Virus record (IMG/VR): IMGVR_UViG_3300045953_000067
Length of the DNA stretch: 64,000 nucleotides
Origin: an uncultured virus (IMG/VR IMGVR_UViG_3300045953_000067)
Lineage: Duplodnaviria; Heunggongvirae; Uroviricota; Caudoviricetes
Reading direction: 5' to 3' (one strand)
In this document: positions 693-48,543 of the stretch, piece after piece
Numbering within the stretch: the first letter of the stretch is position 1
Layout: each line of letters begins with the position of its first letter
Position numbers and translations under genes: made by a program
The notes under the pieces: model-generated
What the model was told of the DNA's origin: nothing
The model's database searches: none
Seen by the model: the letters and a program-made list of their open reading frames with translations, nothing else

Positions 693-695
693 GTT

Positions 696-1463: not shown

Positions 1464-3341
1464 ATGGCGCCGACTTTTGCAGAGTTCCTCACCTGGCCGA
1501 CGCGCGAGGAGGTCATCCTCTGCGAGCTCACACCGTCGCTGACGGTGACTGGCTGGACGCTGCAAACGGGCAGCACGTACAAGGCGGCCCTCTCGCGGTT
1601 CGACACGGCCGCGGGCTTCTCAGTGTATCGGCGCGTCGTGGCGGTCTGGCAGAACGCGACGGTCCTGACGGCGCAGACCTCGATCCCGAACGTCGACGCG
1701 AACCCCGGATCGTACTGGTGGGACGAGACGAACTCCCTCCTCTACGTGCGGACGACGAGCGGGGCCGACCCGGACACCTTCACGGCGATGCAGGCCTTCG
1801 TCACGTTCTACTGCGGCTCGAAGGGGATCGTCCTGAACCGCACGGACGGGAGCCCGGACACCGGGATCTACTATCAGCCCTGGGTCACGACGGACCTCCC
1901 GAGCGCGATCTTCACGATCGACGACCCGGTCTCAGGCGCGAAGACGGCGGCGACCGCGGAGCTTGCGCTCCTGAACGGGCACGGGTTCTTCCACTACGCC
2001 TATCGCAATTACAACTGGCGGAACAAGAAGGTCAAGCTGTTCCTCGGCGGCGACTACAACAGTCAGGCGCTCCTCCGCTCACAGTACACGTCGTGTCTGA
2101 CGATGGTCGTCGAGAACCTCGCGCCGAACGAAGACGTCTGTCGGTTCACGCTCAAGCCACAACTCCGGCTCCTCGACCAGTCGATCCCGGTGACGCCGTT
2201 CTTCACGGACTCGTATCCGAACCTCGGCGACGGGGTGCTCGGGACACGCAAGTGGATCGGCTATGGACGGGCGACGATCGCGCCTGACCTGACCGACATT
2301 CTCACGAGTTACGGGGTGTGGACTCTCGCGGATGCCGCGTATCAGACCCTCTTCGCGATCAATGCGGTCTATGCGATCAAGCGGGACAACACCGAAGGCC
2401 CGCAAGGGCTGACGGTCGGGATCCACTACACGCAAGACCTGACGGCCTGCACGATCACGATCACGGATCCGGCCTACAGCTACCAGGACTACCGGCTGTC
2501 GGTCGACGTGACCGGGAAGCCGGACGGGGGCGGGAGCTACTTCAAGACCTTCTCGGCGATCACGAAGGATCTGCTCACGACGTTCCTCGGCGTCTCCTCG
2601 ACGGACATCGACACGACGGCCTTCACGAATGCCGCGGCGGACGCGCCGCAAGAGCTATCGCTCTGGGTCAAGGACCAGCGGAGCCTCGCGTCGATCCTCG
2701 CGACGACCGAAGAGGATCAGCCGGCGCTCGAGCGGTCCGTGCTCGGCCGCATTCTCCAGACGCCGGCCGGGCTCTGGACGTGCTCGATCTTCCAGCCGGG
2801 CGGCTCGGCGACGGCATCGCTCAGGAAGGAAGACCTCGCGCGGTTCGAGTGCATTCCGGTGCTCGACGCCATTGCTCCGACGGTCGAGATCCAGTACGCC
2901 CACGACCACGACGCGGACACCTGGAAGAGCACGTCGAAGACGACGAGCCTCGTGCAATACGTCGCGGAGACGACGAACCGGATCGTCCTGAAGACGTTCC
3001 TCCGGAACCCGTCCGACGCCGAGGTGCTCTGCTCGCGGATGGCGCGGTTCCTCGCGGTCACGCCGGTGACGGCCGAGTTCGAGGAGCGCGGCACGCTCCT
3101 CGCGACGGCGCTCCCTGGTGACAAGGTGTCCGTTACGTACAGCCCGGCGCCCGGGGTCGGCGGGGCGTTCTCGGCGACGCTCTTCGAAATCGCGGAACTC
3201 GAGCGAAGCCTTCGGCCGGCGCTGACCATCAGCGGGAGACTCGTTATCAACCCGCTCGAGAGCAGTGGGGTCTACGGGAAATGGCTGACCGGGGCCGGGG
3301 CCGGACATTGGGGCGGCGGTTCGCCTACGCAGTGGTACTGA
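1464..3341 (+). CDS. Tail tip hub-like protein (A)
   Basis: 625 aa, position in tail module; ortholog at 49315-51192. Confidence 0.7.
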   Translation: MAPTFAEFLTWPTREEVILCELTPSLTVTGWTLQTGSTYKAALSRFDTAAGFSVYRRVVAVWQNATVLTAQTSIPNVDANPGSYWWDETNSLLYVRTTSGADPDTFTAMQAFVTFYCGSKGIVLNRTDGSPDTGIYYQPWVTTDLPSAIFTIDDPVSGAKTAATAELALLNGHGFFHYAYRNYNWRNKKVKLFLGGDYNSQALLRSQYTSCLTMVVENLAPNEDVCRFTLKPQLRLLDQSIPVTPFFTDSYPNLGDGVLGTRKWIGYGRATIAPDLTDILTSYGVWTLADAAYQTLFAINAVYAIKRDNTEGPQGLTVGIHYTQDLTACTITITDPAYSYQDYRLSVDVTGKPDGGGSYFKTFSAITKDLLTTFLGVSSTDIDTTAFTNAAADAPQELSLWVKDQRSLASILATTEEDQPALERSVLGRILQTPAGLWTCSIFQPGGSATASLRKEDLARFECIPVLDAIAPTVEIQYAHDHDADTWKSTSKTTSLVQYVAETTNRIVLKTFLRNPSDAEVLCSRMARFLAVTPVTAEFEERGTLLATALPGDKVSVTYSPAPGVGGAFSATLFEIAELERSLRPALTISGRLVINPLESSGVYGKWLTGAGAGHWGGGSPTQWY

Positions 3342-3345
3342 GGGT

Positions 3346-3816
3346 ATGAGCTACGACGCGACGACGACGCCTTCGTCTGGTGACGACACGCAACTCGCGG
3401 ACTACACGCGCCTCCGCGATAACGACAAGTCCCTCGCGGGCTCTGGGTCGTCGCACGACCTCGGCGGGTCGCTGAACAAGTTCGTCGAGGATACCTCCTT
3501 CGTCGACCTGCCGGACGGCTGGGATCTGGAGATTGACGGGACGCAACTCGGCGGCCGGACGGTGAAGCTTGAGTTCAACGTCATCGGCGAAACAGGGACC
3601 GCGGTCACAGTGAACGTGCGGCTCTTCAACATTACGGACGCGGGCGCGGTGGCGTCCTCGGATACTGCGGTCGTCAATCCAGGCACAACGCGGACGCGCG
3701 GGATCTCGAGTGCGCTGACGCTCCCGACGGCGGCGAAGCGATACAAGGCGCAAATCAAGGGCTCGGTCGGCGCGGCTGCGAAGGTCGCCGCGCGTGCGCG
3801 GGTGATTATCACATGA
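3346..3816 (+). CDS. Minor tail protein / fibre adaptor (A)
   Basis: N-terminal SGD..LADYTRLRDN motif typical of tail fibre anchors; ortholog at 51204-51674. Confidence 0.6.
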   Translation: MSYDATTTPSSGDDTQLADYTRLRDNDKSLAGSGSSHDLGGSLNKFVEDTSFVDLPDGWDLEIDGTQLGGRTVKLEFNVIGETGTAVTVNVRLFNITDAGAVASSDTAVVNPGTTRTRGISSALTLPTAAKRYKAQIKGSVGAAAKVAARARVIIT

Positions 3817-4973
3817 AGAAGCCTCTCATTCTGGCTGCCGTGCTCTCGTGCGTGGTCGCGGCGGCGCTCGTCGCGCAGACGATCACGGACGTCCATCTCG
3901 GGAAGGTCCGGATCAACTCGACGGCCTCGGACGCGCTCTGCGTCGGGAGCTCCGGCGGATCCTCGCCGACGTGTACGGGCGGGATCAAGGCGGATGATGC
4001 CGTGTTCGGGAATACGGTGGCGATCGGCACGTCGGCGACCGTGGCGAGTTGGGTCTCGCTGTCGTCAGGGGTGATCCGTGTCTCGAACGGGAGCACACAG
4101 GGGGTGCTGCAAGCCTTCGACGCGTCCTACCGGCCGCTGTTGATCGACGGCTCGACCCTCAATTTCTACATCAGCGGCGCGGAGAAGGGGCGGATGCACG
4201 CCTCTGGCGGCTTCTCCTGGGGCGACACGACAGATCCGGGAAGCACCAACTTTCGCGTTGCCGGCCAGCTCCGTCCGGCGGATGGATCGGTGTCCGCTCC
4301 AGCGTATAGCTTCGGCTCGGATACAAACACCGGCGTGTATTCAATTTCCGGAGACCTCCTCGGTTTCGCAATCGGTGGAATCGAGGGCGTTCGCATCGGG
4401 AAGACTGGGACCGGGAATCCCTACATCTCGATCAATCCGGCCGCGTGGGGAACCGGGGCGGTGAGCGGTGGCTACCTGTCTCTCGGGAGGAATACCTCCG
4501 GGAATGGCGCTCCCGGTGTCATTGCGTACGGCGATCAATCGGGCACGTTTTGGTACTCGTGGGCTGATACGTCTGGCAACCTCCGGATTTCGAGCGGCGG
4601 GACCTATCCAGAGGAGGACGGTACGCCCTCTGAGACCTCCGGGACCGTCGTTGGCACGCAGACGTCAACGCGGGATACGAAAAACTTGCTCGGCGCGTTC
4701 ACGGACTATCGCGGCGCGCTCGACCTGATCACGCAAGTCCCGATCTACCGGTTCACGTACAAGAGCGGCGCCTACGGCGGAACGATCTTCACGGGCATCA
4801 TCGCCGATGAACTGCCGGTCGTGATGATGGACCCGGATCCCGCGCATCCGGAGGGCCGATCGTTCTCGCCGGTCTCGGCCTTCGGCTACACGGCCGCGGC
4901 GATCAAGGCGCTTCAGGCTGAGATCGAAGAACTGCGCGCGGAAGTCCGCGACCTGAAAGCGAGGCAGCGATGA
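3813..4973 (+). CDS. Tail fibre/spike with C-terminal S74-type intramolecular chaperone and N-terminal signal peptide
   Basis: STRDTK..YRFTYK..GIIADEL..AAIKALQAEIEEL chaperone motif; MKK-hydrophobic-LVA|Q N-terminus. Confidence 0.8.
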   Translation: MKKPLILAAVLSCVVAAALVAQTITDVHLGKVRINSTASDALCVGSSGGSSPTCTGGIKADDAVFGNTVAIGTSATVASWVSLSSGVIRVSNGSTQGVLQAFDASYRPLLIDGSTLNFYISGAEKGRMHASGGFSWGDTTDPGSTNFRVAGQLRPADGSVSAPAYSFGSDTNTGVYSISGDLLGFAIGGIEGVRIGKTGTGNPYISINPAAWGTGAVSGGYLSLGRNTSGNGAPGVIAYGDQSGTFWYSWADTSGNLRISSGGTYPEEDGTPSETSGTVVGTQTSTRDTKNLLGAFTDYRGALDLITQVPIYRFTYKSGAYGGTIFTGIIADELPVVMMDPDPAHPEGRSFSPVSAFGYTAAAIKALQAEIEELRAEVRDLKARQR

Positions 4974-8784: not shown

Positions 8785-9204
8785 GTGAGAGCGAAGCGCC
8801 GCGGCATCAAGGTCGTTTCGCAGCGGAAGCCGTGGGACTGCGGCCTCGCCTGCCTCGCGATGCTGACCGGCGAACCGTACGGCGACATCGTGGTCGTCGC
8901 GCGGGATCTGGTCGATCCGATCAAGGCGCGCCGGCGCGGGTTGATCATCCCCGACATGCTGCTCGTCGCGGGCGTCTTCGGGATGCGGCTACGCCCGATT
9001 CGCAAGCAGAAGGATTACCTCGTTGGGCGGACTGGGATCCTCGGCCTGGTCGGTGGCGACCTCGACAGGTCAGGGCATTGGGTGATGTTGAAAGCCGGCG
9101 CGATCGTCGAGCCTGACGCCTCGCCGCCGGAAGTCTGGAGTGTTCTGGATTACCTCGCCGAGCACAAGGCGCGGCTGGCGACGCTACTCGTGGAGGACCG
9201 TTGA
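8785..9204 (+). CDS. Stand-alone C39-like cysteine peptidase
   Basis: QRKPWDCGLACLAML..GHWV motif. Confidence 0.75.
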   Translation: MRAKRRGIKVVSQRKPWDCGLACLAMLTGEPYGDIVVVARDLVDPIKARRRGLIIPDMLLVAGVFGMRLRPIRKQKDYLVGRTGILGLVGGDLDRSGHWVMLKAGAIVEPDASPPEVWSVLDYLAEHKARLATLLVEDR

Positions 9205-10410: not shown

Positions 10411-10681
10411 GTCCCACAGATCGGACAGATTGCCGTCCCACAGGAGCCGCAAGGCGATCCGCGTTGTGAGGCCGTATTTATTGGGGATTATTGCTGGTGA
10501 GCCGCGAAGGAATCGAACCTTCAACCCGCAGATTAAGAGCTCACTCGATGCGCCCCAGTCAGGCCCCGGTTTTCCGCATCGAACCACGCGATCAACGATC
10601 CGCCGCTCTCGCAGGAGAGCGGCGAGTTTGCTTCGACATTTTCACGATCCGAGACGGACGTTCCACAGATTTTCCCACAGG
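10411..10681 (+). repeat. Putative integrase arm-type sites (TCCCACAG/TTCCACAG) flanking attP A
   Basis: Copies near 10412, 10436, 10661 and 10673, two on each side of the core. Confidence 0.6.
10495..10539 (-). other. attP core A: 3' half of tRNA-Lys(CTT)
   Basis: Reverse complement CTCTTAA-TCTGC..GGTTCGATTCC..CTCACCA; 5' half absent; next to integrase 3' end. Confidence 0.9.
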
Positions 10682-11866
10682 TCGCTTGATGACATCCGCG
10701 ACGGGCATCCGGGCGCCGAGCGCCTCGAGCGGGGCCGTCTCATCGGCCGCGACGAGGTGTGTGTATATCTGGGTCGTCGTCAGGTCAGCGTGTCCCATCA
10801 GCCGCGCGCGGAGCGCCTCCGGGAGGCCCATGCGCGCGAGCTCGGTCGCCATCGTGTGCCGGAGCGAATGAAACGTGACGCCCTTCGCTCGGCCCCACAG
10901 GAGCGCCGGCGCGACGGGCTTGCCCGTCGCCTCCGACTGGCGCTTCGCGATCGCGCCCGCGGCGGCCTGGACGGCGTGCTTCAGGGCGGTCTTGATGTCG
11001 TCGACGTGCTTGCCGCGGTAGTGCACCACGTATCGCCCGCGGCGGTGCGCCTGCGCGGTCTCGAGCACGGCCCGGAGTTCCTTCGACACGTTCACGACGA
11101 GTGGGAGGCCGGTCTGTCGATCGGTCTTGTGGTCGGGGTCGACGATCTGTGTCAGTGACTCGTCGACGTGCTCGCCCCACTTCAGGTCGAGGATGTTCCG
11201 GAGGCGGAGCTTCGGGGCGAGCGCGCCGATCCCGAGGGCGATCCCGACGTGCGCCGGCGCTTGGGTGATGATCTCGCGGAGCTGCTCCAGGGTGAAGGTC
11301 CGGATCCGCTTCGGGACGCGATCGCGGATCCCGCGCTCGAAGGGGTTCTCGCGGACCTGGCTCCGCTTCCGGTGCGTCGGCATCAGCCCGACCCGATAGA
11401 GCGCGCTGCACGCCGAGCGGTAGGCATTCCGCCGGCTGCCGCTCAACTTCCGCGCGTCCATCCAGAGTTCGAACTTCTCCAGCCATTCCGGATCGGCGAT
11501 CGGGTCGCCGAGTCGGAGGTTGTGATACGGCGCCGGCTCGTCGACGGGCTCCTCCTTCGTCGGCCGCCGGCCCCAGAACGCGAGGATCATCTTCAGGTTG
11601 ATCTTGAACTGTTCCGGGCGCTTCAACTTCTTGCGCTTGACGGCGTGTGTGTAGGTCGCGCCGGCCCATTCGGTGAAGGTGGGCGTGTCCTCGGGCCCGG
11701 CCGGGTCTAGGCCGGCTTTCCGGCGCCTGAGCTTCGCGCGGAGCGCGGCTTCGAAGGCGTCGGCGTCGGCCTCGGTCGTGACGAACGTCGACCCCGTATG
11801 CCGCTGGCCGAAGAGCCAGAAGTCATAGCGGTACGTCACGCAGTCCCGCGGGCGAAAGACGGTCAC
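10592..11866 (-). CDS. int: Tyrosine integrase (A)
   Basis: R..K..HSLRH..GH..Y catalytic set; GTG start overlaps upstream TGA. Confidence 0.92.
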   Translation of the reverse strand: MTVFRPRDCVTYRYDFWLFGQRHTGSTFVTTEADADAFEAALRAKLRRRKAGLDPAGPEDTPTFTEWAGATYTHAVKRKKLKRPEQFKINLKMILAFWGRRPTKEEPVDEPAPYHNLRLGDPIADPEWLEKFELWMDARKLSGSRRNAYRSACSALYRVGLMPTHRKRSQVRENPFERGIRDRVPKRIRTFTLEQLREIITQAPAHVGIALGIGALAPKLRLRNILDLKWGEHVDESLTQIVDPDHKTDRQTGLPLVVNVSKELRAVLETAQAHRRGRYVVHYRGKHVDDIKTALKHAVQAAAGAIAKRQSEATGKPVAPALLWGRAKGVTFHSLRHTMATELARMGLPEALRARLMGHADLTTTQIYTHLVAADETAPLEALGARMPVADVIKRPVGKSVERPSRIVKMSKQTRRSPARAADR

Positions 11867-12126
11867 GCGAGCTCCGGACGTGTCAGGTGTCGCAGGCGTG
11901 GCCCGTCTGGCGGAGCGGCGCTGTCGAACACGCGCGCGTTGGTGCGGACATCGTCGGCGACAGTTCGCGTCCACCGACGGTCCGCGAGGATGGCGACGGC
12001 GTGCTCCTCGGCCTCCCGCCGCGAGCTCGCGCTTCGGACGAAGTACGGCCCGTCGTCCATCCGCTGGCCCCGATACCCGAAGACGAAGAAGAGACCGGTC
12101 GGCTGGCCACCGTTGATGATTGTCAT
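11863..12126 (-). CDS. Hypothetical protein
   Basis: Coupled to integrase start. Confidence 0.5.
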   Translation of the reverse strand: MTIINGGQPTGLFFVFGYRGQRMDDGPYFVRSASSRREAEEHAVAILADRRWTRTVADDVRTNARVFDSAAPPDGPRLRHLTRPELA

Positions 12127-12131
12127 CCGTT

Positions 12132-13547
12132 TTACCTGCCGAGCCAGAACCCGTACTTTCGACGGTTTAGTTCGCGGTTGTTCTGAAGTTCCCCGAACGA
12201 CTGCCACCGCTGCAGCGCGTTGGTCCTCAGCGACGTCAGCGACGAGACTCGCGTCCAGGTTCCGCAGTCGCTATCGCTACTGAAGCCGACGTCAGTCGCC
12301 GAGATGACGACGGCCTGCTGGCCAGCGCCAGAGACGAAGTCGTTCGCGATGATGCTGTCGAGTGTGCCTCGGAAGTCGCGGAGCCGCTCCCAGTAGCAGC
12401 CTGCTTGCGCGTTGGTCGTGTAGATCCCGGGTGTGATTTGACCGCCCACCAACCACATGCCCCCCGGGATGACTGTTTGCAGGCCCTTCAGCGGTGTGTT
12501 GAACCAGGTCCCGCAGTCCGCGTCCGTCTGGAACGCAAGATCCGTCGGCAAGATGTCGACGATCGTCTGCGCCGCGGCGAATCCTATGAAGTTATTGGCG
12601 ATGATGTCGTTCAGGCTGCCGCTCAAGCCCGACTGACGCTCCCAGTAACAACCGCTCGCAGGGATGCTGTAGTACCGGCCCGCGGCGATCTCGCTGCCCA
12701 CTCGCCATTGACCCGCGCCAAACGTCGTATTCGGGCCGCCGTTCGCGACGGTGAAAAACCGGCTGCCGAGGCCCTGCGTGTTGCCTCGGTTGTCGGTGGC
12801 CACCCAGAAGATCGAATGCACGCCATTAGTGAGTTTCGTCGTGTCGATCTGGAAGATGCCGATCGCGCCACTGGTGTTTGCGAGGCCAGGAAAGAGCCCG
12901 GCCACGTCCGGTCGAAAGTGACCATACGATGGATTCCCACGCGGGATGCTATCGATGTAGACCGTGATGGTTGAGCCGTTGGTCGGAATCATCCCCGGTT
13001 GCGGCGTCAAGGCCCAACCGAAGTTGATGATCGTTCCGCTGACGGTCTGGCCTTGCGCAGGCGTATCGATTGTGCCGAATGGCAGGCGACTAGTGCTGTT
13101 GGTCGCCGTCACCGTCCGTTGGCCCAGTGTGACGGAGTTGCCTGAGTTGTCCGTGGCGATCGCGTGCAGGCGGAACGTGCCGTTGCCGCCGTTGGGCAGG
13201 AAGTTCGAGAGGAGCATGTAGCCCCACCCGGCCCGTGTGCTATTCGGATAGGTCGGGAACTTTGCTGCGACGTCCGGCCTGGCGCCGGCAACGAACGTCG
13301 CATCGCCGACAAAGACTAGAAGACCTGACACTTCGCCAACAACCGGATCTCGATACACCTTGACCGACACGATCCCGGAGTTGTCGAGCGCCCATCCCGT
13401 GACGGCGACCTCCCCCGCTATCCCTACGCCGTCCGAAGGTGAATCGAACGAGCCGAAGGGTGGGCCCACGGCTTGACCGTGTGTCGTGGTGTTGATGAGC
13501 ACGAGGGACACGAGGAGGAGCATCCACCCGACCAGGCGACGGAGCAT
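12132..13547 (-). CDS. Exported moron protein: two Ig-like (PFGxxDxP..GWAL) repeats plus two GCYWER repeats
   Basis: Signal peptide, internal duplications, lower GC, absent from B. Confidence 0.8.
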   Translation of the reverse strand: MLRRLVGWMLLLVSLVLINTTTHGQAVGPPFGSFDSPSDGVGIAGEVAVTGWALDNSGIVSVKVYRDPVVGEVSGLLVFVGDATFVAGARPDVAAKFPTYPNSTRAGWGYMLLSNFLPNGGNGTFRLHAIATDNSGNSVTLGQRTVTATNSTSRLPFGTIDTPAQGQTVSGTIINFGWALTPQPGMIPTNGSTITVYIDSIPRGNPSYGHFRPDVAGLFPGLANTSGAIGIFQIDTTKLTNGVHSIFWVATDNRGNTQGLGSRFFTVANGGPNTTFGAGQWRVGSEIAAGRYYSIPASGCYWERQSGLSGSLNDIIANNFIGFAAAQTIVDILPTDLAFQTDADCGTWFNTPLKGLQTVIPGGMWLVGGQITPGIYTTNAQAGCYWERLRDFRGTLDSIIANDFVSGAGQQAVVISATDVGFSSDSDCGTWTRVSSLTSLRTNALQRWQSFGELQNNRELNRRKYGFWLGR

Positions 13548-13621
13548 CGCGGTCCTTCCCTTTCAGGGTTACTGTTTCCGCCGCCGCGTGCGCTCCAGAC
13601 CTCACGGTCGCGCGTAGGTCG

Positions 13622-13900
13622 TCACCGTAGAAGTTCCTGCACGCCTCTAGCGAACACGTATGGCACGATGGCAATGAGACACGCCACGGCGGCGCCGGCA
13701 GCCTCCTGCGGGGCCCCATTGGCGAGCGTGACGGTGACGAACCCAAACAGCCCGGCGACGAGCGCCGCGAGCATGGAGACCACCCAGAAAATTTTCGCGA
13801 CCACTGGGTTCCGTTGCTGCGCGACCACGTAGGCGGCGCTCGGCGCGGCGCTCTGCCAACCCGGCGCGGGTGTATGTGCCGGTTCTTCGATGGTTGTCAT
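13622..13900 (-). CDS. Two-TM membrane protein
   Basis: Hydrophobic helices, APQEAAGAA..IVPYVFAR. Confidence 0.7.
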   Translation of the reverse strand: MTTIEEPAHTPAPGWQSAAPSAAYVVAQQRNPVVAKIFWVVSMLAALVAGLFGFVTVTLANGAPQEAAGAAVACLIAIVPYVFARGVQELLR

Positions 13901-13913
13901 CGCGTGCCCCCCT

Positions 13914-14129
13914 CTACTTCAGTGACGCGAGGCGTCGGCGGATCGCGCAATCGATCATGACTTCGACCACTCGCGCAGCTCCGGGATCCAGTCGTTCAAG
14001 ATGCGCGGCCTTTGAGGCCAGTGAGGACTGCGGCGTTGGTAACTTCGCGCGCAGCATTTCAAGCTTTCGCCCCGTGAGTTCGTCGAGCCTCCTGCCCTGG
14101 TTTGAGTACGCGAGCCGCAACGTCATCAC
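13914..14129 (-). CDS. Small conserved protein (LRLxYSN family) (A)
   Basis: Ortholog at 58391-58621. Confidence 0.7.
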   Translation of the reverse strand: MMTLRLAYSNQGRRLDELTGRKLEMLRAKLPTPQSSLASKAAHLERLDPGAARVVEVMIDCAIRRRLASLK

Positions 14130-14261
14130 CGTCGCCTCCGCGCTGCGCCTCAGAGCGCGCAGCAGCAGAGCTTCGGCGATCGGTATGACAGGTCAGGTCC
14201 ATCGCTACCCGTGGTGCGGCGGCCGGTGTCACTACCTCAACCGGTAGTGTCGACGCGACAC

Positions 14262-14579
14262 TCACCGTTTCTTGCGTCGCATCTTGACGGCGGCGCCCAT
14301 CATGTCACCCATCGCGAGCGACCAGTCGCAGACCCATTCCTTGTCCGGTTCTTCCGGCTGCGCCGCCACGATGCCGACCAGCGCGCACCCGGCGTAGTAC
14401 TCGTCGAGCGTGATCTGCAGCGTCGCTGGGACCGCGGGCGGACGGGGGTTGACCAAGAGCGTGCGCCGTCGGGATCGTTCCCATCCTGAGATTGGCGTTT
14501 CATTACGATCGCCGTCTCCACGGGCCGGTGCGCGGCGTCGAACGATGCCAGGCGTGCGGGCCTTTGATGGGCGTTTCAT
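14262..14579 (-). CDS. Conserved phage protein (LDEYYAGCAL motif) (A)
   Basis: Ortholog at 58758-59081; coupled to repressor stop. Confidence 0.75.
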   Translation of the reverse strand: MKRPSKARTPGIVRRRAPARGDGDRNETPISGWERSRRRTLLVNPRPPAVPATLQITLDEYYAGCALVGIVAAQPEEPDKEWVCDWSLAMGDMMGAAVKMRRKKR

Positions 14580-14799
14580 CGGTGGCCCGCCTTTCGCTTG
14601 GGATGTCCAGGCCGCTGTCCGCGATCCTTTCGATGGCTCGCATCTTCTCGGGGAACAGGAGCGCGAGTTCCTGGAGCTTGTCCCCCAAAGCTCTCTTCGG
14701 CTTCTCGGGCGAAGTGGTCGAGAGCGTCCTTGACGACGTTGCCGAATCCTCGAAGGTCGTTGCTAAAGGCTGTGAGTGTACGAGCCGGATCCTGGTCAC
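14503..14799 (-). CDS. Candidate ORF nested in repressor 3' end (A)
   Basis: GGGAGG RBS plus GTG conserved in B; similarity to 13914-14129. Confidence 0.55.
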   Translation of the reverse strand: MTRIRLVHSQPLATTFEDSATSSRTLSTTSPEKPKRALGDKLQELALLFPEKMRAIERIADSGLDIPSERRATDETPIKGPHAWHRSTPRTGPWRRRS

Positions 14800-15166
14800 C
14801 GATGGCCCCTCCCTTGGTTCGGTCTTGATGAGCTGGAGGGGTCTCTTTTACACCAGAGCCAGGCTGATCGCGTATGGTTTTTTTACTGGGAATTTTTCCG
14901 CGCCGCAAGATGTCGTAGTCCGCATCGACGCCAACAACAAGATCCTCGATGGTCGCGCGAAGCCGTCTCGCTAGTTTCAGCAGCGTCTCCCCTTCCGGCA
15001 CGCCGCCCTTTTCGTTGATCCAATTGCTGAACATCGACGGGGTGACGTCGAGTTCGGCAGCGATCTCCTTTTTCTTCTTTCCTGGGAACCGGGTAGAACA
15101 GAGAGCCTTCAGGTTGCGGCCGAACGCCGCTGGGTCAAGCACACCGGGACGATAGCCCGTCTCCAT
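14576..15166 (-). CDS. CI-like XRE-HTH repressor (A), no S24 peptidase domain
   Basis: EIAAELDVTPSMFSNWIN HTH; divergent from cro. Confidence 0.85.
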   Translation of the reverse strand: METGYRPGVLDPAAFGRNLKALCSTRFPGKKKKEIAAELDVTPSMFSNWINEKGGVPEGETLLKLARRLRATIEDLVVGVDADYDILRRGKIPSKKTIRDQPGSGVKETPPAHQDRTKGGAIGDQDPARTLTAFSNDLRGFGNVVKDALDHFAREAEESFGGQAPGTRAPVPREDASHRKDRGQRPGHPKRKAGHR

Positions 15167-15240
15167 ATTTTTTCGCAAGCAAGAATTTTCCGTAAGCACA
15201 AGACCCGACACCACTTGCGCCTGACCGCAATATTGCTCCG

Positions 15241-15304
15241 TGTGTTCAAGCACAAATTTATCTTGCAACACATGAACTAGGGGTGTAGCTTGTGTTTCGA
15301 CGCA
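15241..15304 (+). promoter_or_regulatory. PR-like promoter (TTGCAA-17-TAGCTT) with TGTG..CACA-type operator candidates
   Basis: -35 at 15263, -10 at 15286; tgtgttcaagcaca at 15241. Confidence 0.6.
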
Positions 15305-15571
15305 ATGCCGAAGCCGCTCAGTCCGGAACAAATCGACGCGATGCGAGCCGTCCCGCTCGGAGAAATGCCGAACAAGCTCCGGATCGCGATTGCGCTCGCG
15401 AAGGTGAAGCAGGCGGAGGTCTGCGAGGAGACCGGCCTGACGCCTTCGATGGTCAGTAACTTCGTGCTCGGCAAATACACGACGTTGACCATCGACACGG
15501 CGCGGAAGCTCGCGGAGTTCTTCGGTTGCCAGATTGAGGATTTGTTCCCGGCGCGTGAGGCCGTCGCCTGA
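15305..15571 (+). CDS. Cro-like HTH protein (A)
   Basis: QAEVCEETGLTPSMVSNF..LAEFFGCQIEDLF. Confidence 0.88.
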   Translation: MPKPLSPEQIDAMRAVPLGEMPNKLRIAIALAKVKQAEVCEETGLTPSMVSNFVLGKYTTLTIDTARKLAEFFGCQIEDLFPAREAVA

Positions 15572-15661
15572 TGTCGTGTTCATCATGCCGACGAGTCTCG
15601 CCGACGACCGTGTCTCTCGTGAACTAGGCAGTTCTCAAGAGAGGAAAAAGCGAAGGCGCGT

Positions 15662-16015
15662 ATGACTTTCACACTCTGTCCGCCGTCGTGGGCCGCGGCC
15701 CTCCGTCGCGAGGATCCGGTCGTCCGGTCGATGGCGGATCGCTTCGACGAGATGCTCCGGATCTGCGACGTCAGCCGGGAGAAAGCGGCGCTCTGGATGG
15801 AGATCAGCCGGGCGCAGCTGGATCAGCAGCTCGCGGGCGACGGACATATCTCGCTCTACAGGCTCGCGATGCTCCCCGAGGATTGTGTCTCGACGCTCGC
15901 GGCCCTCGTGCTGCGCGATATGGGTCTCCCCCGGTTCCTCTGCGGGGCGGAGAACGCGCTCGACGCGGCGGATCGCGTGGCTGGCCGCCGGAAGATGGCG
16001 AGGGCCTCGCTGTGA
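15662..16015 (+). CDS. CII-like regulator (A)
   Basis: Position after cro; HTH-like EKAALWMEISRAQLDQQL. Confidence 0.55.
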   Translation: MTFTLCPPSWAAALRREDPVVRSMADRFDEMLRICDVSREKAALWMEISRAQLDQQLAGDGHISLYRLAMLPEDCVSTLAALVLRDMGLPRFLCGAENALDAADRVAGRRKMARASL

Positions 16016-16137
16016 TCACGGTGCTCTGGGTGTCGTGCGTGGCGATCGGGTCGGTGCTCGCGGTGCGCTGGGTGGTTCGGCAACCGTGGCGGCGGTACTG
16101 GCACCTCTTCCTAATCGCGCTGTTCGAGGAGCGGTAG
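16012..16137 (+). CDS. Small membrane peptide
   Basis: GTGA coupling; TM plus basic tail. Confidence 0.5.
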   Translation: MITVLWVSCVAIGSVLAVRWVVRQPWRRYWHLFLIALFEER

Positions 16138-16395
16138 ATGTTCTGGATTGAATTGCTGGTCTGGTCGTTCGGCTCGGTCTACGCGGTCCGCGGGTTGTAC
16201 CGCGCGACGTCCGGGCGCGGGCGCGTGCTCTGGCGCACGGCGCAGGTGCTCTGCTGCCTGGGGCTGCTCGGCCTCGCGACGGCGGCGGGCGCGGATGTGA
16301 TCATCGGCGATCCCGATCAAGCTCGCTGCGCGCTCTGCGCGACGCTCGAGCCGTACTCCTTCTGGTGGTTCTTCAACGCGTGCTTCGCCTGCTGA
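16138..16395 (+). CDS. Exported Cys-x14-Cys peptide precursor (A)
   Basis: TM, signal-like segment, AGA|D, conserved CxxLEPxSFxWxFxxCF. Confidence 0.75.
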   Translation: MFWIELLVWSFGSVYAVRGLYRATSGRGRVLWRTAQVLCCLGLLGLATAAGADVIIGDPDQARCALCATLEPYSFWWFFNACFAC

Positions 16396-16408
16396 GCTGG
16401 GTGAGCGT

Positions 16409-16684
16409 GTGTCGACCTGGCGCCTTCTGTCGATCGGAGAGACGGCCGCGAAGCTCGGGCGGTCCGAGCGTGAAGTGCGCGGCATGGTCTCACGCGGAGA
16501 GTTTCCGGCGCCGTGCGTGAAGCGGATCGGGCGCCGGATCTTCCTGCGCGAAGTCGCTGTCGAGGCGTGGCTCTCCGAAGACGACATGCACCCGCCGCCG
16601 TCGCAGGCCAGCGCGTTCGAGGAAGCCGAGCGGATCGCGGAGTGCGCCCGGCTCGGGATCGAACCGGATCACGTGTTTAGTTGA
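16409..16684 (+). CDS. Excisionase-like HTH_17 protein (A)
   Basis: LLSIGETAAKLG..RIGRRIF..VEAWL. Confidence 0.8.
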   Translation: MSTWRLLSIGETAAKLGRSEREVRGMVSRGEFPAPCVKRIGRRIFLREVAVEAWLSEDDMHPPPSQASAFEEAERIAECARLGIEPDHVFS

Positions 16685-16692
16685 GGCTCCCG

Positions 16693-16764
16693 ATGAAGAA
16701 GTTGATCCCGTGGATCTTCGTTGTCGCGTCGGCCGGCTTTCTCGCGGGGGTGTTCACGTCATGA
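16693..16764 (+). CDS. 23-aa single-TM microprotein (A)
   Basis: MKKLIPWIFVVASAGFLAGVFTS; ortholog at 61008-61082. Confidence 0.65.
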   Translation: MKKLIPWIFVVASAGFLAGVFTS

Positions 16765-17189
16765 GAGAGAACCCGATCGACCCGCCTACTCCACCCGGAC
16801 CCGAGACGGATCCCGGCTACTACGAGCGGCCGTTTCTCCCGGAGCTTCCGCTCTGGGTGTGGCTCGTCTGGGGGCTCATCGTCGGCGCGTCGCTCGCGGT
16901 CCTGATCTACCTCGGCGTCGAGACGGCGAGGGCGCAGGAGGCGCCGGCGCGGCCGATGAAGTCCTGGCAACTCGGATGGTTGCCCGGGATCGACAACGCG
17001 GACACCGAGAACATGGACCGGCGCTTCAGGGTGGACGTGTACGACACCGAGGGCGTCTGTCTCTATGTCGTGAGCGGCTATCAGCGAACAGAGCCGATCA
17101 GGTTGGACGTTCCGATCGCTCTCGGAATGACGTCGGCGATCGCGGCCGTCCCGAAGACGCAACTCCCGAAAGGCGCGGGCTGTCAGTGA
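16761..17189 (+). CDS. Membrane-anchored/exported protein
   Basis: TM, ARA|Q, two Cys. Confidence 0.6.
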   Translation: MRENPIDPPTPPGPETDPGYYERPFLPELPLWVWLVWGLIVGASLAVLIYLGVETARAQEAPARPMKSWQLGWLPGIDNADTENMDRRFRVDVYDTEGVCLYVVSGYQRTEPIRLDVPIALGMTSAIAAVPKTQLPKGAGCQ

Positions 17190-17379
17190 CGCGCTGGTCA
17201 CGGTTCCTCATCGCGATCGGTTGGACGCCGGATCTCCGTCTGGACACGGCGCGCAAGTTTGCGGCGTGGGGCGGCGAGCCGGTGCGGTACCGACAGACGC
17301 AGAAAGGCGACGAGGCTCGGCACCAGATCCGAAAGCCGATGTCGTTCGCCGAGTGGCTGAAGCGGTACGGCAAGGCGTC

Positions 17380-17646
17380 ATGAGCCGACCGCGCGGCGCG
17401 CAGTTCGTTCGCATGTGGAAGGTGCTCGTCCTGCTCCGACAACGGTCCTGGCGTCTCTCGGAGTTGGCCGAGGAACTCGGATGCAGTACGCGGACGGTGC
17501 GTCGGGATCTGCGGGTGCTCGAGGCGGTCTCGTTCCCGGTGATCCGGGCGCGGAGTTGGCAGCCGAGCGACGTGACGATCCGGCTCGGGTCAATGCCGGA
17601 ATGGCCTCGACGGGAAGACGCGCCGATTCGAGAACTGAGGGCCTGA
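17380..17646 (+). CDS. Stand-alone HTH_11 (WYL-regulator-type wHTH) (A)
   Basis: LSELAEELGCSTRTVRRDLRVL. Confidence 0.8.
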   Translation: MSRPRGAQFVRMWKVLVLLRQRSWRLSELAEELGCSTRTVRRDLRVLEAVSFPVIRARSWQPSDVTIRLGSMPEWPRREDAPIRELRA

Positions 17647-17810
17647 TGCGGAACGGGATGAAACAGATCGTCGGGATGCTCTGCGTCGCGGGTCGCTGGC
17701 GAGCGGTGCTCTCGTGCGGGCACGAAGAGGACGCGCGGCACGACACGAAGCTCGGGGGGTTCCGGTTCTGTGCGATCTGTCGGCTGGTGACGTGGAAGAG
17801 GACGGCCTGA
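17646..17810 (+). CDS. Small Zn-binding protein (LSCGH..CxxC) (A)
   Basis: Ortholog at 61948-62112. Confidence 0.65.
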   Translation: MRNGMKQIVGMLCVAGRWRAVLSCGHEEDARHDTKLGGFRFCAICRLVTWKRTA

Positions 17811-17853
17811 AAAGGAAAAGGCCCGGGCTGCAAAACCGGGCCAGAAAGGAAAA
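17811..17853. terminator. GC hairpin flanked by A-tracts (terminator-like, minus-strand polarity)
   Basis: ggcccgg..ccgggcc stem; analogous hairpin near 62121 in B. Confidence 0.45.
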
Positions 17854-17855
17854 CC

Positions 17856-18344
17856 GTGTCCTTACACAAGATACCCGTTACCCATTCGATGAGTCAACCT
17901 CCGACCGCCCGGTGCGCCTGTGGCGTCTCCCGGGCGAATCACTTCGCGCTTGGCGGCGTGCGCCTGTCCTGTGAAGACGCGCAGTCGGTCGTCCTCGAGA
18001 AAGCCACGCGCGACTTGGAACAGGTCGAGGGGATCGCGAACGTGCTCGCGTCGATCGTCTCGACCCGGCACGAGTTGCCATTCTCCGACATCCGGGCGCT
18101 CGCGACGCAGGGGGTCGCAGGGCTCGAGGAAGCCTCCGTCTATCGCGGCGTCGCACGGCGGGCGATCGCGTCCTGCCTGCCCTCACGGTGCGCGGAGGCG
18201 CGGCTCGAGGCGCGGCGTGCGGCGGTCGGGAAGGCGCTCGAAGCCTTCGGCGTCCGGATGATGACGACGAACGAGCGGATCTTCTTCGAGACCCTCGCCG
18301 ACGCCGCGGTCATGGCCTACGGCCGATCCTTGGAGGCGCTCTGA
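17856..18344 (+). CDS. Conserved hypothetical protein (A)
   Basis: Ortholog at 62167-62649. Confidence 0.75.
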   Translation: MSLHKIPVTHSMSQPPTARCACGVSRANHFALGGVRLSCEDAQSVVLEKATRDLEQVEGIANVLASIVSTRHELPFSDIRALATQGVAGLEEASVYRGVARRAIASCLPSRCAEARLEARRAAVGKALEAFGVRMMTTNERIFFETLADAAVMAYGRSLEAL

Positions 18345-18345
18345 C

Positions 18346-19335
18346 ATGTCCGCGATCGAGCTCGTCCAGAAGTCGGATCTCCCGGAACCCGTCATCAAGC
18401 GCGGCATCACCGAACCGCAGTGGCGGACGCTCTTCAACCTATATCCGGGCGCGCGTCCGGACTCGGCGCTGATGGTCTGGGACTACTGCAAATCGCGGCA
18501 GCTCGACCCCATGAAGAAGCCGTGCCATATCGTGCCGATGCGCGTGAAGGTCAACGGCGAATGGGCCTGGCGCGACGTCGTGATGCCGGGGATCTACGAA
18601 TATCGGACGACGGCGCAGCGGACCGGGCTCTATCTCGGACACACCGAGCCGGTGTTCGGGGAGCCCCTCGAGCTTCTCGGCGTCAAGGCCCCGGCCTGGT
18701 GCGCGATGACCTTTTACCGGTGGAACGAGAAGGCGCAGGAAAAAGTCCCGTTCCCGGTCAAGGTCTGGTTCGCCGAGTGCGTCGGGACGAAGGTCAAGAA
18801 CGACGTCGAGACGGTCAACGAGCGATGGACGAAGGCGCCGATCCAGATGCTCACGAAGTGCACGGAGGCCGCCGGCCTGCGTGAAGCGTTCCCGGAAGAA
18901 TTCGGCGGCGAGCCGACGGCCGAAGAGATGGACGGCCAGCGCGCCTACGACGACGCGCCGGTCGTGTCGGTCGTCTCGAGCCCGAAGCCGTCCGTCCGGA
19001 AATCCGAGCAGTCGTCCCAGCCTGTCCCGGTCGTCAACCCTCAGCCCCCTGCAACGTCGGCGGCTCCGGAGCCTCAACCCGAGCCGCCGGCTACGGCGCC
19101 GGCGAATGCGCCGGCCTGGGTGGGGATGATCGTGACGGTCGACGAGCGTCCGGGCGGGACGCTGATCACGCTCAGTAGCGGGTTCAAGTGCGCGACGCGG
19201 AACGCGGACTTGATTGCCGCGGCGAAGGGGCTCAGGGACACGCAGGCCGTCGTCGAACTCTCGACGCGGGCCGCGAAGCAGGCCGGCAACGCGCCGATCC
19301 TGGAATCGATCGAGCCCGTCGGCGAGGACGCATGA
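18346..19335 (+). CDS. bet: RecT/Bet-family single-strand annealing protein
   Basis: LDPMKK..GIYEYRTTAQRTG..WTKAPIQMLTKCTEAAGLREAFP. Confidence 0.88.
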   Translation: MSAIELVQKSDLPEPVIKRGITEPQWRTLFNLYPGARPDSALMVWDYCKSRQLDPMKKPCHIVPMRVKVNGEWAWRDVVMPGIYEYRTTAQRTGLYLGHTEPVFGEPLELLGVKAPAWCAMTFYRWNEKAQEKVPFPVKVWFAECVGTKVKNDVETVNERWTKAPIQMLTKCTEAAGLREAFPEEFGGEPTAEEMDGQRAYDDAPVVSVVSSPKPSVRKSEQSSQPVPVVNPQPPATSAAPEPQPEPPATAPANAPAWVGMIVTVDERPGGTLITLSSGFKCATRNADLIAAAKGLRDTQAVVELSTRAAKQAGNAPILESIEPVGEDA

Positions 19336-19994
19336 GGGCCGCCGTGCTCACGGGCGCCGACCTCGCCTTCGAAGCGGAGACGCACACGTATCGCCGGCCG
19401 GACGGCGTCATCGTGCCGAGCGTCACGCAGATCCTTCGCGCGGTCGGGATCTCGGCGGACTTCGAGCACCTGAAGAGCCTCTCGGGCCGGCTCGGCGATC
19501 GCATCGACTACCGGCGCGATCTCGGGACCGCGGTGCACGCGGACTGCCATGCCTTCGACGACGACGACATCGTCTGGGGCAACGTGCATCCGGACGTCGC
19601 GCCGTTCGTCGAGGCCTGGGCGGCGTTCCTCGAGAACACCGGCCTCGTGCCGTCGACCAGGGAACGGCGTCTCTTTCACGCCGGCCTCGGCGTGTGCGGC
19701 ACGCTCGACGGGATCTTCTCGCGGTTCCCGGCGCCGGAACATCGCATCTTGATCGACATCAAGATCGGCGACCCGCGCGACGCCGGCGCCGACGTCCAGA
19801 CGGCGGCCTATCAACTCCTATGGGACGAAGAACATCCGGGCGAGCCGATCGCGGAACGCTGGAGCGTGCAGCTCACGCCCGAACTCGGCGTGCCGTATCG
19901 GATCCACCCCTACACCGACTGGACGGACGCCGCGGCTTTCCGTGCGTGCGTCTGCGTGTACCAGCGCCAGGCGGCGCGGAGGACTGCCCGATGA
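19332..19994 (+). CDS. PD-(D/E)XK exonuclease
   Basis: PSVTQIL..GTAVH..CGTLD..IDIK..QTAAY. Confidence 0.85.
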   Translation: MRAAVLTGADLAFEAETHTYRRPDGVIVPSVTQILRAVGISADFEHLKSLSGRLGDRIDYRRDLGTAVHADCHAFDDDDIVWGNVHPDVAPFVEAWAAFLENTGLVPSTRERRLFHAGLGVCGTLDGIFSRFPAPEHRILIDIKIGDPRDAGADVQTAAYQLLWDEEHPGEPIAERWSVQLTPELGVPYRIHPYTDWTDAAAFRACVCVYQRQAARRTAR

Positions 19995-21358: not shown

Positions 21359-21819
21359 AAGACGACTTCGAACGCCGATCGAAGCACTGGCAGGACGGCG
21401 ACATTGTGACGACCGTCCTCCGATCCTCCGGTGAGAAGGTCACGGCGGTCGTGAAACGGACCTATCCGCGGAAGTCGGACGGCAAGACGTTCGTCCGGGT
21501 GCAGTACCTGAGCGGCCCGAAACACGGGACGACGGACTGGGCCGGCCCGATCTGGACCTTCGGCAAGGGCGCGCACAAGCTTACGTGTCTCGATCCGGGC
21601 TGCAACCAGGTGTTCTACACGGACGACCACACGAAGGACTTCTGCCCCTGCTGCGAGCGCACGATGGAGCCGCGCACGGGATCGCGGACGAAGGTCGAGC
21701 AGCGGAGGGACACGACGCGCCAGGTCGTCACGCCGGTCGCTCGGGTGTCGCGTCCGCCGATCGATGAAGAGGCCGCCGCTCAGCAGCGGGCGATCGACGA
21801 CGCGGAGTCGAGGTTCTGA
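21355..21819 (+). CDS. Hypothetical protein with Cys cluster
   Basis: GGAGG RBS, coupled ORF. Confidence 0.6.
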   Translation: MKDDFERRSKHWQDGDIVTTVLRSSGEKVTAVVKRTYPRKSDGKTFVRVQYLSGPKHGTTDWAGPIWTFGKGAHKLTCLDPGCNQVFYTDDHTKDFCPCCERTMEPRTGSRTKVEQRRDTTRQVVTPVARVSRPPIDEEAAAQQRAIDDAESRF

Positions 21820-23750
21820 TGTCAACGCGCGCGCCGCTCATTCGGCTCTACCAGGACGAAGCCGTGGCGGACCTGTTCGCCGGCGGCGGCGGAGCCTCGA
21901 CCGGGATCGAGATGGTGCTCGGCCGTTCACCGGACATCGCGATCAACCACGACGCCGACGCGCTCGCGATGCACGAGCAGAACCACCCGGGAACCGAGCA
22001 CCTGAAGGGCGACGTCTTCAACTACGACCCTGACACCGTCGCGACGACGCACGCCGGCGGCCGGCGGTTTGCGTTCGCGTGGTTCTCGCCGGACTGCACG
22101 TACCACTCGAAAGCCAAGGGCGGGAAGCCGTTCCGCGACAAACGGAAGTCGGTCCGGATCCGCGGGCTCGCGTGGGTGATGGTGCATTGGGCCGAGTCGA
22201 CGATCGCCAAGCCCCGGTGCATCTTCATGGAGAACGTCGAGGAGCTTGAGGACTGGGGGCCGCTGATCGAAGTCGGCCGCGGCGAGTGGAAGCCCGATCC
22301 GACAAAGCGCGGCACCTACTGGAAGCGCCTTGTTCGGCGGTTGAAGAACGCCGGCTACGACCGGATCGAGTGGCGCAAGCTCCGGGCGTCGCACTATGGG
22401 GCGCCCACGTCGCGGCAGCGGATGGTGATGATCGCCAGGTGCGATGGCCTGCCGATCGTCTGGCCGGAGCCGACGCATGGACCGAAACGAACCCGGCCGT
22501 TCCGGACGGCGGCCGAGTGCATCGACTTCAACCTGCCCGTCCCGTCGATCTTCCTGACGCCTGAAGAAGCGAAGGAGTGGGGGCGGTTCTACGGGGTGCC
22601 GGCACCGAAGCGCCCGCTCGCGGACAACACGCTGCGGCGCGTCGCGCGCGGCGTCGTCCGCTACGTCATCGAGGCGGTCGACCCATTCATCATCCCGATC
22701 GGCGAGAACGGCATCATCGCGCCTTACGTCGTGCCGCCGCGTGGCTACCGGCAGGACGAAAACATGGTCGACGCGATCGGGGCTCCGCTACGGACGATCA
22801 AGGCCACCGACGCGCACGTCTTCGGGCTGGCGACGCCGTTCCTCGTCAAGCACTACGGTGGGGACCGGGGCCAGAACGCCGGCAGGTTCTCTCAGCTCGA
22901 CGACCCAATGGGCACGGTGACGACGTCGGACCATCACGCGCTCGTGGTGCCGACGCTCATCAACACCCGGAACGGCGAACGCCACGGGCGGCACGGGGAG
23001 CAGGCGCCGCGCGTGCTCGACATTCAGGCGCCATATCCGACCATCACGGCGCTCGGGAGTCAGGGCGCGCTGGTCGCGGCGTTCCTCGCGAAGCACAACG
23101 CCGGGCACGAGGCCACCGGACAGCATCCGGAGCGGCCGCTCGACACCGTCACGACCCGCGACACCAAGGCGCTTGTCACGGCGCATCTGACACGGTTCAA
23201 CACCGAGCGCACCGAGGGGAGCGTTCGCGGGCAAGGGATGCGCGAACCGCTGACGACGCTCGACACCTCGAACCGCTTCGGGCTCGTGACGTCGAACCTC
23301 GTGAAGCTCCGCGGCGGGCTGCTCGACCACGTCCACACATCGCAGGACGTGCGGGAGCCGGTCCCGACTCTGACGGCCGGCGGCACGCACCTGGCGGAGG
23401 TCAGGGCCTTCCTCGTGAAGTTCTTCGGGACCGGCGTCGCGCGCTCGCTCTGGAACCCGCTCGACACCGTGACGACGAAGGATCGCGTTGGGCTCGTCAT
23501 CGTGACGATCGCCGGTGAAGAGTACGTGCTCGTCGACATCGGGATGCGGATGCTGACGCCCCGCGAGCTGTTTCTGGCGCAGGGCTTCCCGCGCTCCTAC
23601 GTCATCGACCGAGGCAAGCGCGACGGCGTCACCCGGAAGTTCACGAAGGGCGTTCAGACGCGGCTCGTCGGGAACTCCGTGCCGCCGCATCTGGCCGCCG
23701 CGGTCATCAGCGCGAACCTCGGCTCAAACGTCATGGAGGCGATCGCCTGA
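21819..23750 (+). CDS. DNA (cytosine-5) methyltransferase
   Basis: DLFAGGGG, SPDC, ENV, RQR, GNSV motifs. Confidence 0.92.
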   Translation: MSTRAPLIRLYQDEAVADLFAGGGGASTGIEMVLGRSPDIAINHDADALAMHEQNHPGTEHLKGDVFNYDPDTVATTHAGGRRFAFAWFSPDCTYHSKAKGGKPFRDKRKSVRIRGLAWVMVHWAESTIAKPRCIFMENVEELEDWGPLIEVGRGEWKPDPTKRGTYWKRLVRRLKNAGYDRIEWRKLRASHYGAPTSRQRMVMIARCDGLPIVWPEPTHGPKRTRPFRTAAECIDFNLPVPSIFLTPEEAKEWGRFYGVPAPKRPLADNTLRRVARGVVRYVIEAVDPFIIPIGENGIIAPYVVPPRGYRQDENMVDAIGAPLRTIKATDAHVFGLATPFLVKHYGGDRGQNAGRFSQLDDPMGTVTTSDHHALVVPTLINTRNGERHGRHGEQAPRVLDIQAPYPTITALGSQGALVAAFLAKHNAGHEATGQHPERPLDTVTTRDTKALVTAHLTRFNTERTEGSVRGQGMREPLTTLDTSNRFGLVTSNLVKLRGGLLDHVHTSQDVREPVPTLTAGGTHLAEVRAFLVKFFGTGVARSLWNPLDTVTTKDRVGLVIVTIAGEEYVLVDIGMRMLTPRELFLAQGFPRSYVIDRGKRDGVTRKFTKGVQTRLVGNSVPPHLAAAVISANLGSNVMEAIA

Positions 23751-48539: not shown

Positions 48540-48543
48540 GGGT

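Follow-up and report, generated by a model that had tools for sequence, protein, structure and literature searches.

Divergent small genes for predicted membrane proteins with a conserved cysteine-bracketed tail in the early operons of two tandem prophages

Two small genes and their setting

The window, that is the whole stretch of 64,000 nucleotides analysed here, has a GC content of 66.6%, and its Pfam matches include a lambda-type terminase, portal, capsid, RecT and integrases. Self-BLAST matches between its regions indicate that pieces of three related prophages, called X, A and B, lie within it in tandem, head to tail (Table 1). The tail regions of X and A match over about 4 kb (1-3990 and 47848-51851, 89.7% identity), and shorter blocks, 73-87% identical, connect A and B around the immunity region. 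The immunity block and the cII-ORF-xis block of A and B, in turn, have drifted apart to roughly 30% identity in protein. Two junctions are visible, each with its own tyrosine integrase (460 and 452 aa). A virus record of 47,974 bp with terminal repeats, G001, shares 79% of words with the window. The nearest genomic relatives of the large terminase reside in MAGs of Vicinamibacterales (63%), an uncultured Acidobacterium (61%), Anaeromyxobacteraceae (59%) and Kofleriaceae (52%). Since these are genomes of Acidobacteriota and Myxococcota, a diderm host is likely. Window DNA was found in soil metagenome runs, and the host is probably a diderm soil bacterium, likely one of the Acidobacteriota.

Some genes of these prophages deserve mention in their own right. 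The cargo block at the right end of prophage X includes a stand-alone Peptidase_C39-like protein of 139 aa (8785-9204, plus strand; Pfam E 1.2e-6, scoring 28.8 bits where the cut-off is 22), followed downstream by a 177-aa ORF and then by an 81-aa membrane ORF; by tblastn, neither prophage A nor the part of B within the window has a copy of the C39-like gene. Between its integrase and its repressor, phage A encodes a 471-aa protein (12132-13547, minus strand) whose N-terminus carries a signal-like segment and which contains bacterial Ig-like domains (Big_7, E 3.9e-7); this is likely a lysogenic-conversion cargo gene, and B has no counterpart at that position. Phage A further encodes, at 21819-23750 (plus strand), a protein of 643 aa that includes a C-5 cytosine DNA methylase domain.

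The early operons of A and B have the same gene order. A divergent repressor is followed by a cro-like gene, a gene in the cII position, a small ORF, called here ORF A or ORF B, and an excisionase-like gene matching HTH_17 and phrog_66. A promoter-like site, TTGACA-18-TAGTAT, lies just before cro of B, and no terminator-like site was found between cro and the ORF in either phage. ORF A and ORF B, noticed in a first-pass annotation made from the sequence alone, are real genes. Their GC3 is 0.91 and 0.90, where the window as a whole has 0.67, and it is still high in the N-terminal third of each (0.93 in A, 0.86 in B), which argues that the frames are coding over their full length. GC at second positions (0.56 in A and 0.43 in B, against 0.71 in the antisense shadow frame) points to the sense frame. 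SD-like sites precede both starts (GAGGAG in A, AAGAGG in B), and the starts are coupled to the upstream stop, which they adjoin in A (TAGATG) or overlap in B (ATGATGA); SD sites and stop-start overlap together fix the start positions.

Table 1. Features of the three prophages and of the early operons of phages A and B, in positions of the window (amino acid residues for the parts of the two products)
Feature	Position	Strand	Remarks
Prophage X, right end	1 to ~10500		
Prophage A, complete	10592 to ~56800		integrase 10592-11974
Repressor frame, A	14576-15586	-	divergent; Phage_CI_repr + HTH_3; true start probably internal
cro-like HTH gene, A	15290-15571	+	first gene of the operon; HTH_26 + HTH_3
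cII-position gene, A	15662-16015	+	117 aa; without family match; 27% identity to B counterpart
Extra membrane ORF, A only	16012-16137	+	41 codons; GC3 0.93; assigned by hydropathy
ORF A	16138-16395	+	85 aa; identical copy in G001
Parts of ORF A product	residues 1-85		segment 1 ~1-21 (weak, aromatic); Arg-rich loop; segment 2 ~34-52; acidic aromatic tail 53-85
Tail motif, A	16336-16386	+	C-x3-E-P-x-[ST]-F-x-W-[FY]-F-x2-C-F; flanked by C64 and C85
Excisionase-like HTH_17 gene, A	16409-16684	+	PF12728 E 2.8e-10, phrog_66; 13 nt after ORF A
Prophage B, left end	56893-64000		integrase 56893-58251
Repressor frame, B	59078-60148	-	divergent; HTH_26 + HTH_3; true start probably internal
cro-like HTH gene, B	59768-60031	+	promoter-like site upstream at 59733-59762
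cII-position gene, B	59994-60446	+	start uncertain in frame; stop overlaps ORF B start
ORF B	60443-60721	+	92 aa
Parts of ORF B product	residues 1-92		segment 1 ~17-33 (strong); Arg-rich loop; segment 2 ~48-66; tail 67-92
Tail motif, B	60662-60712	+	C74 to C89, C-x14-C
Excisionase-like HTH_17 gene, B	60727-61011	+	PF12728 E 2.8e-7, phrog_66 + phrog_1840; 5 nt after ORF B

The slot assigned to the two ORFs, between a CII-like gene and xis, holds with two amendments. In phage A an additional membrane ORF of 41 codons intervenes; it begins with a GTG that overlaps the stop codon of the preceding cII-position gene (GTGA), and its own stop adjoins the start of ORF A. Gene callers easily miss such a frame. 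It is not a relative of A or B, as the alignment scores are reached by 154 of 3000 and 2156 of 3000 shuffles, respectively. For the label CII-like, Pfam, PHROGs and further family searches provide no family support in the upstream gene. Further small ORFs with a single predicted membrane pass lie directly after the xis-like gene (16710-17189, 61028-61249 and 61135-61377, all plus strand), and both early operons thus carry clusters of small membrane proteins. Other small genes occur in the same regions. A conserved Cys-rich micro-gene of 54 aa, with four Cys plus His in zinc-ribbon-like spacing, is found in both phages (17646-17810 and 61948-62112, plus strand) directly upstream of a protein of 160/162 aa (86% identity between the two phages). 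In phage B, a 64-aa protein (61374-61568, plus strand) with the KGG stress-induced repeat motif (PF10685, E 7e-11) is also encoded within the early operon.

Four soil metatranscriptome runs yielded short exact contigs over parts of 13500-19500, two of which reach the 5' part of ORF A (X20, 16087-16330; X21, 16108-16258); these data, being contigs only, patchy over lysogeny and early genes and without a control stretch, do not establish transcription.

A divergent orthologous block and its conserved tail

BLASTP aligns the products of ORF A and ORF B only at the C-terminal side (27.7 bits, E 4e-6, 17 of 46 residues identical). Smith-Waterman scores were compared with those of 5000 composition-preserving shuffles. 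The whole proteins score 79 (25.4 +/- 4.7 in shuffles) and the tails 59 (19.1 +/- 4.1), values reached by none of the 5000 shuffles in either case; the likeness of the tails is therefore not due to their aromatic composition. The N-terminal parts score 29 (20.6 +/- 3.8), which 195 of 5000 shuffles reach. The view that only the C-terminal peptide is conserved is borne out, similarity being confined to the last ~30 residues, and calling the N-terminal parts unrelated is roughly right, although a marginal likeness is present. The conserved tail reads A-D-x-x-I-G-[DN], followed by the motif given in Table 1. Cysteines occupy positions 39, 40, 64, 67, 82 and 85 in A, 74 and 89 in B. These positions bear out the exact C-x14-C spacing claimed for both proteins, as well as the second, symmetric pair claimed for A, which is the outer pair C64/C85.

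A and B differ at 9 of the 17 motif positions. The corresponding DNA is identical at 31 of 51 positions, evenly spread over the codon (11, 10 and 10 of 17 for first, second and third positions), which argues for conservation at the protein level rather than for a recently shared patch of DNA. Back-translated, the motif is found at two places in the window, and in none of 100 shuffles. The neighbouring genes have diverged to a similar extent, identity between A and B being 27% for the cII-position genes and 31% for the xis-like genes, and the block formed by the cII-position gene, the ORF and xis lies between segments 75-87% identical in DNA. Since the neighbours are equally diverged, the three genes form one old, divergent orthologous block, and not a peptide cassette.

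The block is not a constant feature of related phages. A prophage in a Vicinamibacterales MAG (L005:1-2000, and L091, which is G002:C112) has clearly related cro and integrase genes, and its Cro carries the same C-terminal motif as those of A and B. Its early region is much shorter, about 10 kb separating cro from terminase, and the slot is empty, the xis-like gene (L005:427-693) following at once on the cII-position gene (L005:20-430). The ORF is thus dispensable for this phage type. Phages A and B carry it as an accessory, and it is not a fixed part of the switch of the phage type.

Homologues were searched for at several levels. In a word-indexed search of 5.8 billion clusters A and B each retrieved one match, itself. 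An exhaustive HMMER search of 1.84 billion representatives with the A+B profile, which covers proteins of all lengths and would have revealed fused forms, gave nine matches at E<=0.001, two of which are A and B themselves. The other seven are proteins of 550-3082 aa in which 3-8 stretches match; the three examined (P0003-P0005) consist of Ig-like tandem repeats, with a recurring P-Y-S/T-Y-Q-W-Y stretch in P0003 and P0004, and were discarded as homologues. No GenBank phage matched A or B by tblastn at E<=10, or the 2.5-kb region by blastn. Scans of IMG/VR for related loci with A, B and the conserved 162-aa neighbour retrieved none, nor did a metagenome scan with the same neighbour. The strict back-translated motif had no match in the IMG/VR, genome and metagenome collections. 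A looser form gave 16 matches in IMG/VR, about the number expected by chance, all in frames of 13-72 codons without the layout of A and B. A regular-expression scan of 93 sources (1.21 Mb) returned A, its two copies in G001, and B. No copy of ORF B was found in G001, where the sole match to B is ORF A, 32% identical. In the class to which the nearest MAG belongs, 401 genomes were scanned; 40 match the A+B profile at E<=0.1, but in the hydrophobic part only, none of the matches extending past position 84 of the 99 profile positions, whereas the motif spans 81-97; with three mismatches allowed the motif is found in none of the 401.

Curated families (Pfam, PHROGs, NCBIfam, PADLOC, PDB) gave nothing above threshold. 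The best matches below it are EBP for A (E 0.033), and phrog_22163, which is unnamed (E 0.023), and MAB_1171c_fam (20.5 bits, cut-off 100) for B; the best PDB match has an E of 0.19, and in PHROGs the weak match of B to phrog_22163 is the only one at E<=0.1. In the ESM Atlas the best feature scores (0.77 and 0.78) fall below the chance bar, and structure matches are generic helical hairpins, among which a Dp-1 holin cluster at a TM score of about 0.5. ORFs A and B constitute an undescribed orphan family of two members, which belongs with the small early membrane proteins that are common in phages.

Membrane layout and fate of the tail

Hydropathy and charge give the same plan in both proteins: a hydrophobic segment, a basic patch, a second hydrophobic segment, and small residues at the two positions of a small-x-small site, as described in the first-pass annotation. 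Arginines (R18, R22, R27, R29 and R33 in A; R42, R43, R46 and R47 in B) are confined to the loop between the segments, except R12 in the N-terminus of B. Segment 2, bounded by the last Arg and the first Asp, is 19 residues long, and both tails are net acidic. By the positive-inside rule an Arg-rich loop is cytoplasmic, so that the tail should be periplasmic and both termini outside. Even if the weak segment 1 of A failed to insert, segment 2 alone would still export the tail. We infer that A and B are inner-membrane proteins, with two hydrophobic segments around the Arg-rich loop and the tail in the periplasm. The predicted export of the tail, rather than a cytoplasmic C-terminus, is the most likely topology given the Arg-rich loop and the acidic tail. 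The last 13 residues are strongly interface-seeking on the Wimley-White scale (-8.8 kcal/mol in A, -7.6 kcal/mol in B). AlphaFold2, run on the two-sequence alignment, models both proteins as a helical hairpin with two short helices in the tail, interrupted at E-P; with pLDDT values as low as 53 and 55, these models lend weak support to the layout.

Several known types of cysteine-containing or exported product do not fit. A four-Cys zinc ribbon is contradicted by B, which keeps two of the four cysteines, the C-x2-C...C-x2-C arrangement occurring in A only, and by the predicted location of the tail in the periplasm, not in a reducing compartment. A lipobox closes a signal peptide with the pattern [LVI][ASTVI][GAS]C. 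A lipoprotein of the Cor or Llp type was rejected, because C39 and C40 of A are preceded by V-L and L-C, and B has no Cys before residue 74. By inspection, no motif resembling the S/T-R-R-x-F-L-K of Tat signals was seen. A RiPP precursor was dismissed because no modifying enzyme lies nearby, and processing by the C39-like peptidase mentioned above because that gene belongs to prophage X, and the ORFs have no N-terminal double-glycine leader.

The first-pass annotation had proposed that a short peptide is released from the C-terminus. A signal peptide has a basic n-region, an h-region of 7-15 residues, and small residues at -3 and -1. By inspection, the stretch ahead of the putative site has these traits in both proteins: R27, R29 and R33, 11 hydrophobic residues and A-G-A before D in A; R42-R47, 15 hydrophobic residues and T-Y-A before A in B. 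The small residues claimed at -3 and -1 are indeed present, sequence conservation (A-D-x-x-I-G-[DN]) starts at the putative cut, and the length of segment 2 leaves room for signal peptidase, so that cleavage is possible. Were signal peptidase I to cut there, a disulfide-looped peptide of 33 (A) or 27 (B) residues would be freed, very hydrophobic and plausibly membrane-bound, which could inhibit or permeabilise an envelope target. Yet the signal-like segment is internal, being preceded by 29-43 residues that include another hydrophobic segment and are coding (GC3 0.93 in A and 0.86 in B). Ala-x-Ala is common in proteins of a 67% GC genome, the putative cut sites are shifted by one residue when A and B are aligned, and the 19 residues of segment 2 are long enough to span the membrane. 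Cleavage after segment 2 in A and B may be regarded as doubtful, and an active freed peptide as unlikely. An uncleaved two-helix membrane protein, whose N-terminal part is translationally coupled to the upstream gene, fits the data equally well, and the claim of a released peptide is not upheld.

Communication between phages would require that the released tail leaves the cell and reports on lysis or lysogeny, A and B carrying phage-specific variants. The location in the lysis-lysogeny region, the predicted export of the tail and the differences between the two motifs are in favour, and the ORFs resemble AimP in encoding a short, exported phage product with a phage-specific C-terminal sequence. 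In arbitrium, as described for Bacillus phages, a hexapeptide serves as the signal and is bound by a receptor of the HTH-TPR type (PMC6458997). The receptor AimR, about 386 aa long, has an N-terminal HTH and a TPR-like peptide-binding domain and is encoded next to AimP, according to the same source (PMC6458997). The Pfam scan covered 81 window ORFs of at least 60 aa that passed the GC3 filter (16 scanned at E<=0.1, 14 at E<=0.001 and 51 at E<=1e-4), and none of them belongs to a TPR or RRNPP-type family, in agreement with the earlier remark that no AimR-type receptor is visible. The conserved unit of A and B is not a hexapeptide, but a Cys-containing unit of ~27-33 residues with C-x14-C and a strongly hydrophobic end, too hydrophobic to diffuse, and a hydrophobic segment precedes the putative signal peptide. 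Arbitrium hosts are Bacillus or related monoderms, with import through Opp, whereas the terminase relatives are found in diderm MAGs, and from a diderm periplasm a peptide would have no evident way out or back in. Specificity, moreover, rests on a family of two members. Lysis-lysogeny communication, suggested in the first place, is not sustained, given that no AimR-type receptor was found among the ORFs scanned, that the host is likely diderm and that the end of the tail is interface-seeking, and its probability appears minimal. A related scheme, in which a cleaved tail stapled by one (B) or two nested (A) disulfides acts as a phage-type-specific periplasmic or extracellular peptide that marks infected or lysogenic cells for sister phages, or excludes these, is very improbable. 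If true, phages of a diderm soil phylum would use a peptide self/non-self signal with a receptor unrelated to AimR. A tail both released and phage-specific would extend phage peptide signalling beyond Bacillus, but nothing found points that way. In annotation, which is the level of this result, "exported tail with conserved Cys pair" is a reasonable description, and "released signalling peptide" is unsupported.

Candidate functions

The reading that we prefer, and to which an even chance may be given, is that A and B are divergent orthologues of one small inner-membrane protein of the phage, made early and acting on the envelope in the infected cell. The product of the early, cro-side operon, translationally coupled to the upstream gene, would insert with its two hydrophobic segments flanking the short, Arg-rich cytoplasmic loop, leaving a C-terminal tail of ~27-33 residues in the periplasm. 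There the two conserved cysteines could pair as a disulfide, and the aromatic end would be placed at the interface of the inner membrane's outer leaflet. The protein would act in cis, and its target would be an envelope component of the same infected cell. At a guess, it might keep superinfecting phages from bringing in their genome, in the manner of T4 Imm, P22 SieA and HK97 gp15. As no homologue of known function was found, function is guessed by analogy; superinfection (entry) exclusion, or a related effect on the envelope, is the best guess as to the most likely function. The alternatives of exclusion or an envelope target, already raised at first pass, survive in this form, by analogy.

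T4 Imm, Sp and HK97 gp15 are described as small phage proteins that reside in or at the inner membrane and prevent entry of the genome (PMC11436027; PMC10883804). By analogy they would be the nearest functional counterparts of the products of ORFs A and B, in which no sequence similarity to PHROG families of known function is detectable. We know of no Cys-bracketed aromatic tail described for T4 Imm, Sp or HK97 gp15. T4 Imm is encoded by an early gene, is similar in size to A and B, and has two hydrophobic stretches. An early role of the Imm type is a better fit to the position of the ORFs on the lytic-side operon. This position is a counterpoint to exclusion, since prophage exclusion genes such as SieA are reported to be expressed from the prophage (PMC10883804).

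The P22 SieA proteins are described as 162-164 aa long, with three predicted TM helices and a motif, FxRYPxEAxxFNK, predicted to be cytoplasmic (PMC10883804). According to the same account, SieA types show mutual identities below 30%, and have TM predictions that are alike and a single short motif that is conserved (PMC10883804). A and B show the same combination of low identity, conserved TM layout and a single short conserved motif, and resemble the SieA portrayed there as a phage inner-membrane protein without a cleavable N-terminal signal, involved at the envelope step of DNA entry (PMC10883804). They depart from it in size (85-92 aa), in having two segments rather than three, in the periplasmic location predicted for their Cys-bracketed motif and in the lytic-side operon, and have no PHROG match of known function that would place them in the SieA family.

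Other roles for a small two-helix protein were considered. Class II (two-TM) holins are similar in size and form a two-helix hairpin, and a Dp-1 holin cluster is among the structure matches. The ORFs, in contrast, reside in the early operon, ~36 kb from the cell-wall hydrolase cassette (52205-52911), and their tail is acidic and aromatic, whereas the C-terminus of holins is usually charged. Location and tail are both wrong, and a holin was rejected. A modulator of the switch similar to lambda CIII would inhibit or occupy FtsH/HflKC, and in this way stabilise the product of the cII-position gene. The ORF is coupled translationally to the cII-position gene, directly in B and via the 41-codon ORF in A, and has diverged along with it. 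Against such a role, the cII-position gene has no family support as a CII, the active site of FtsH is cytoplasmic whereas a periplasmic location is predicted for the conserved tail, lambda CIII is not known as a membrane protein with two helices, and the Vicinamibacterales prophage, which has a different cII-position gene, lacks such an ORF; a CIII-like function is improbable. We attach equally little weight to a small early membrane inhibitor of host growth or division, comparable to phage Kil or to inhibitors of the Caulobacter SidA type. The block before xis is, in lambdoid phages, the typical place of Kil-type genes, and early-operon position, small size and membrane layout would suit an inhibitor of this sort, but no sequence or family link was found, and the sequence gives no hint of a division target.

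Small membrane proteins are very common in phage early operons, and are mostly unstudied; the cases that have been studied, such as Imm, SieA and gp15, control which phages enter the cell. ORFs A and B offer a compact and testable case, in which the part that determines function is narrowed down to a ~30-residue tail whose Cys pair is conserved, and their carriers are phages of poorly studied soil bacteria.
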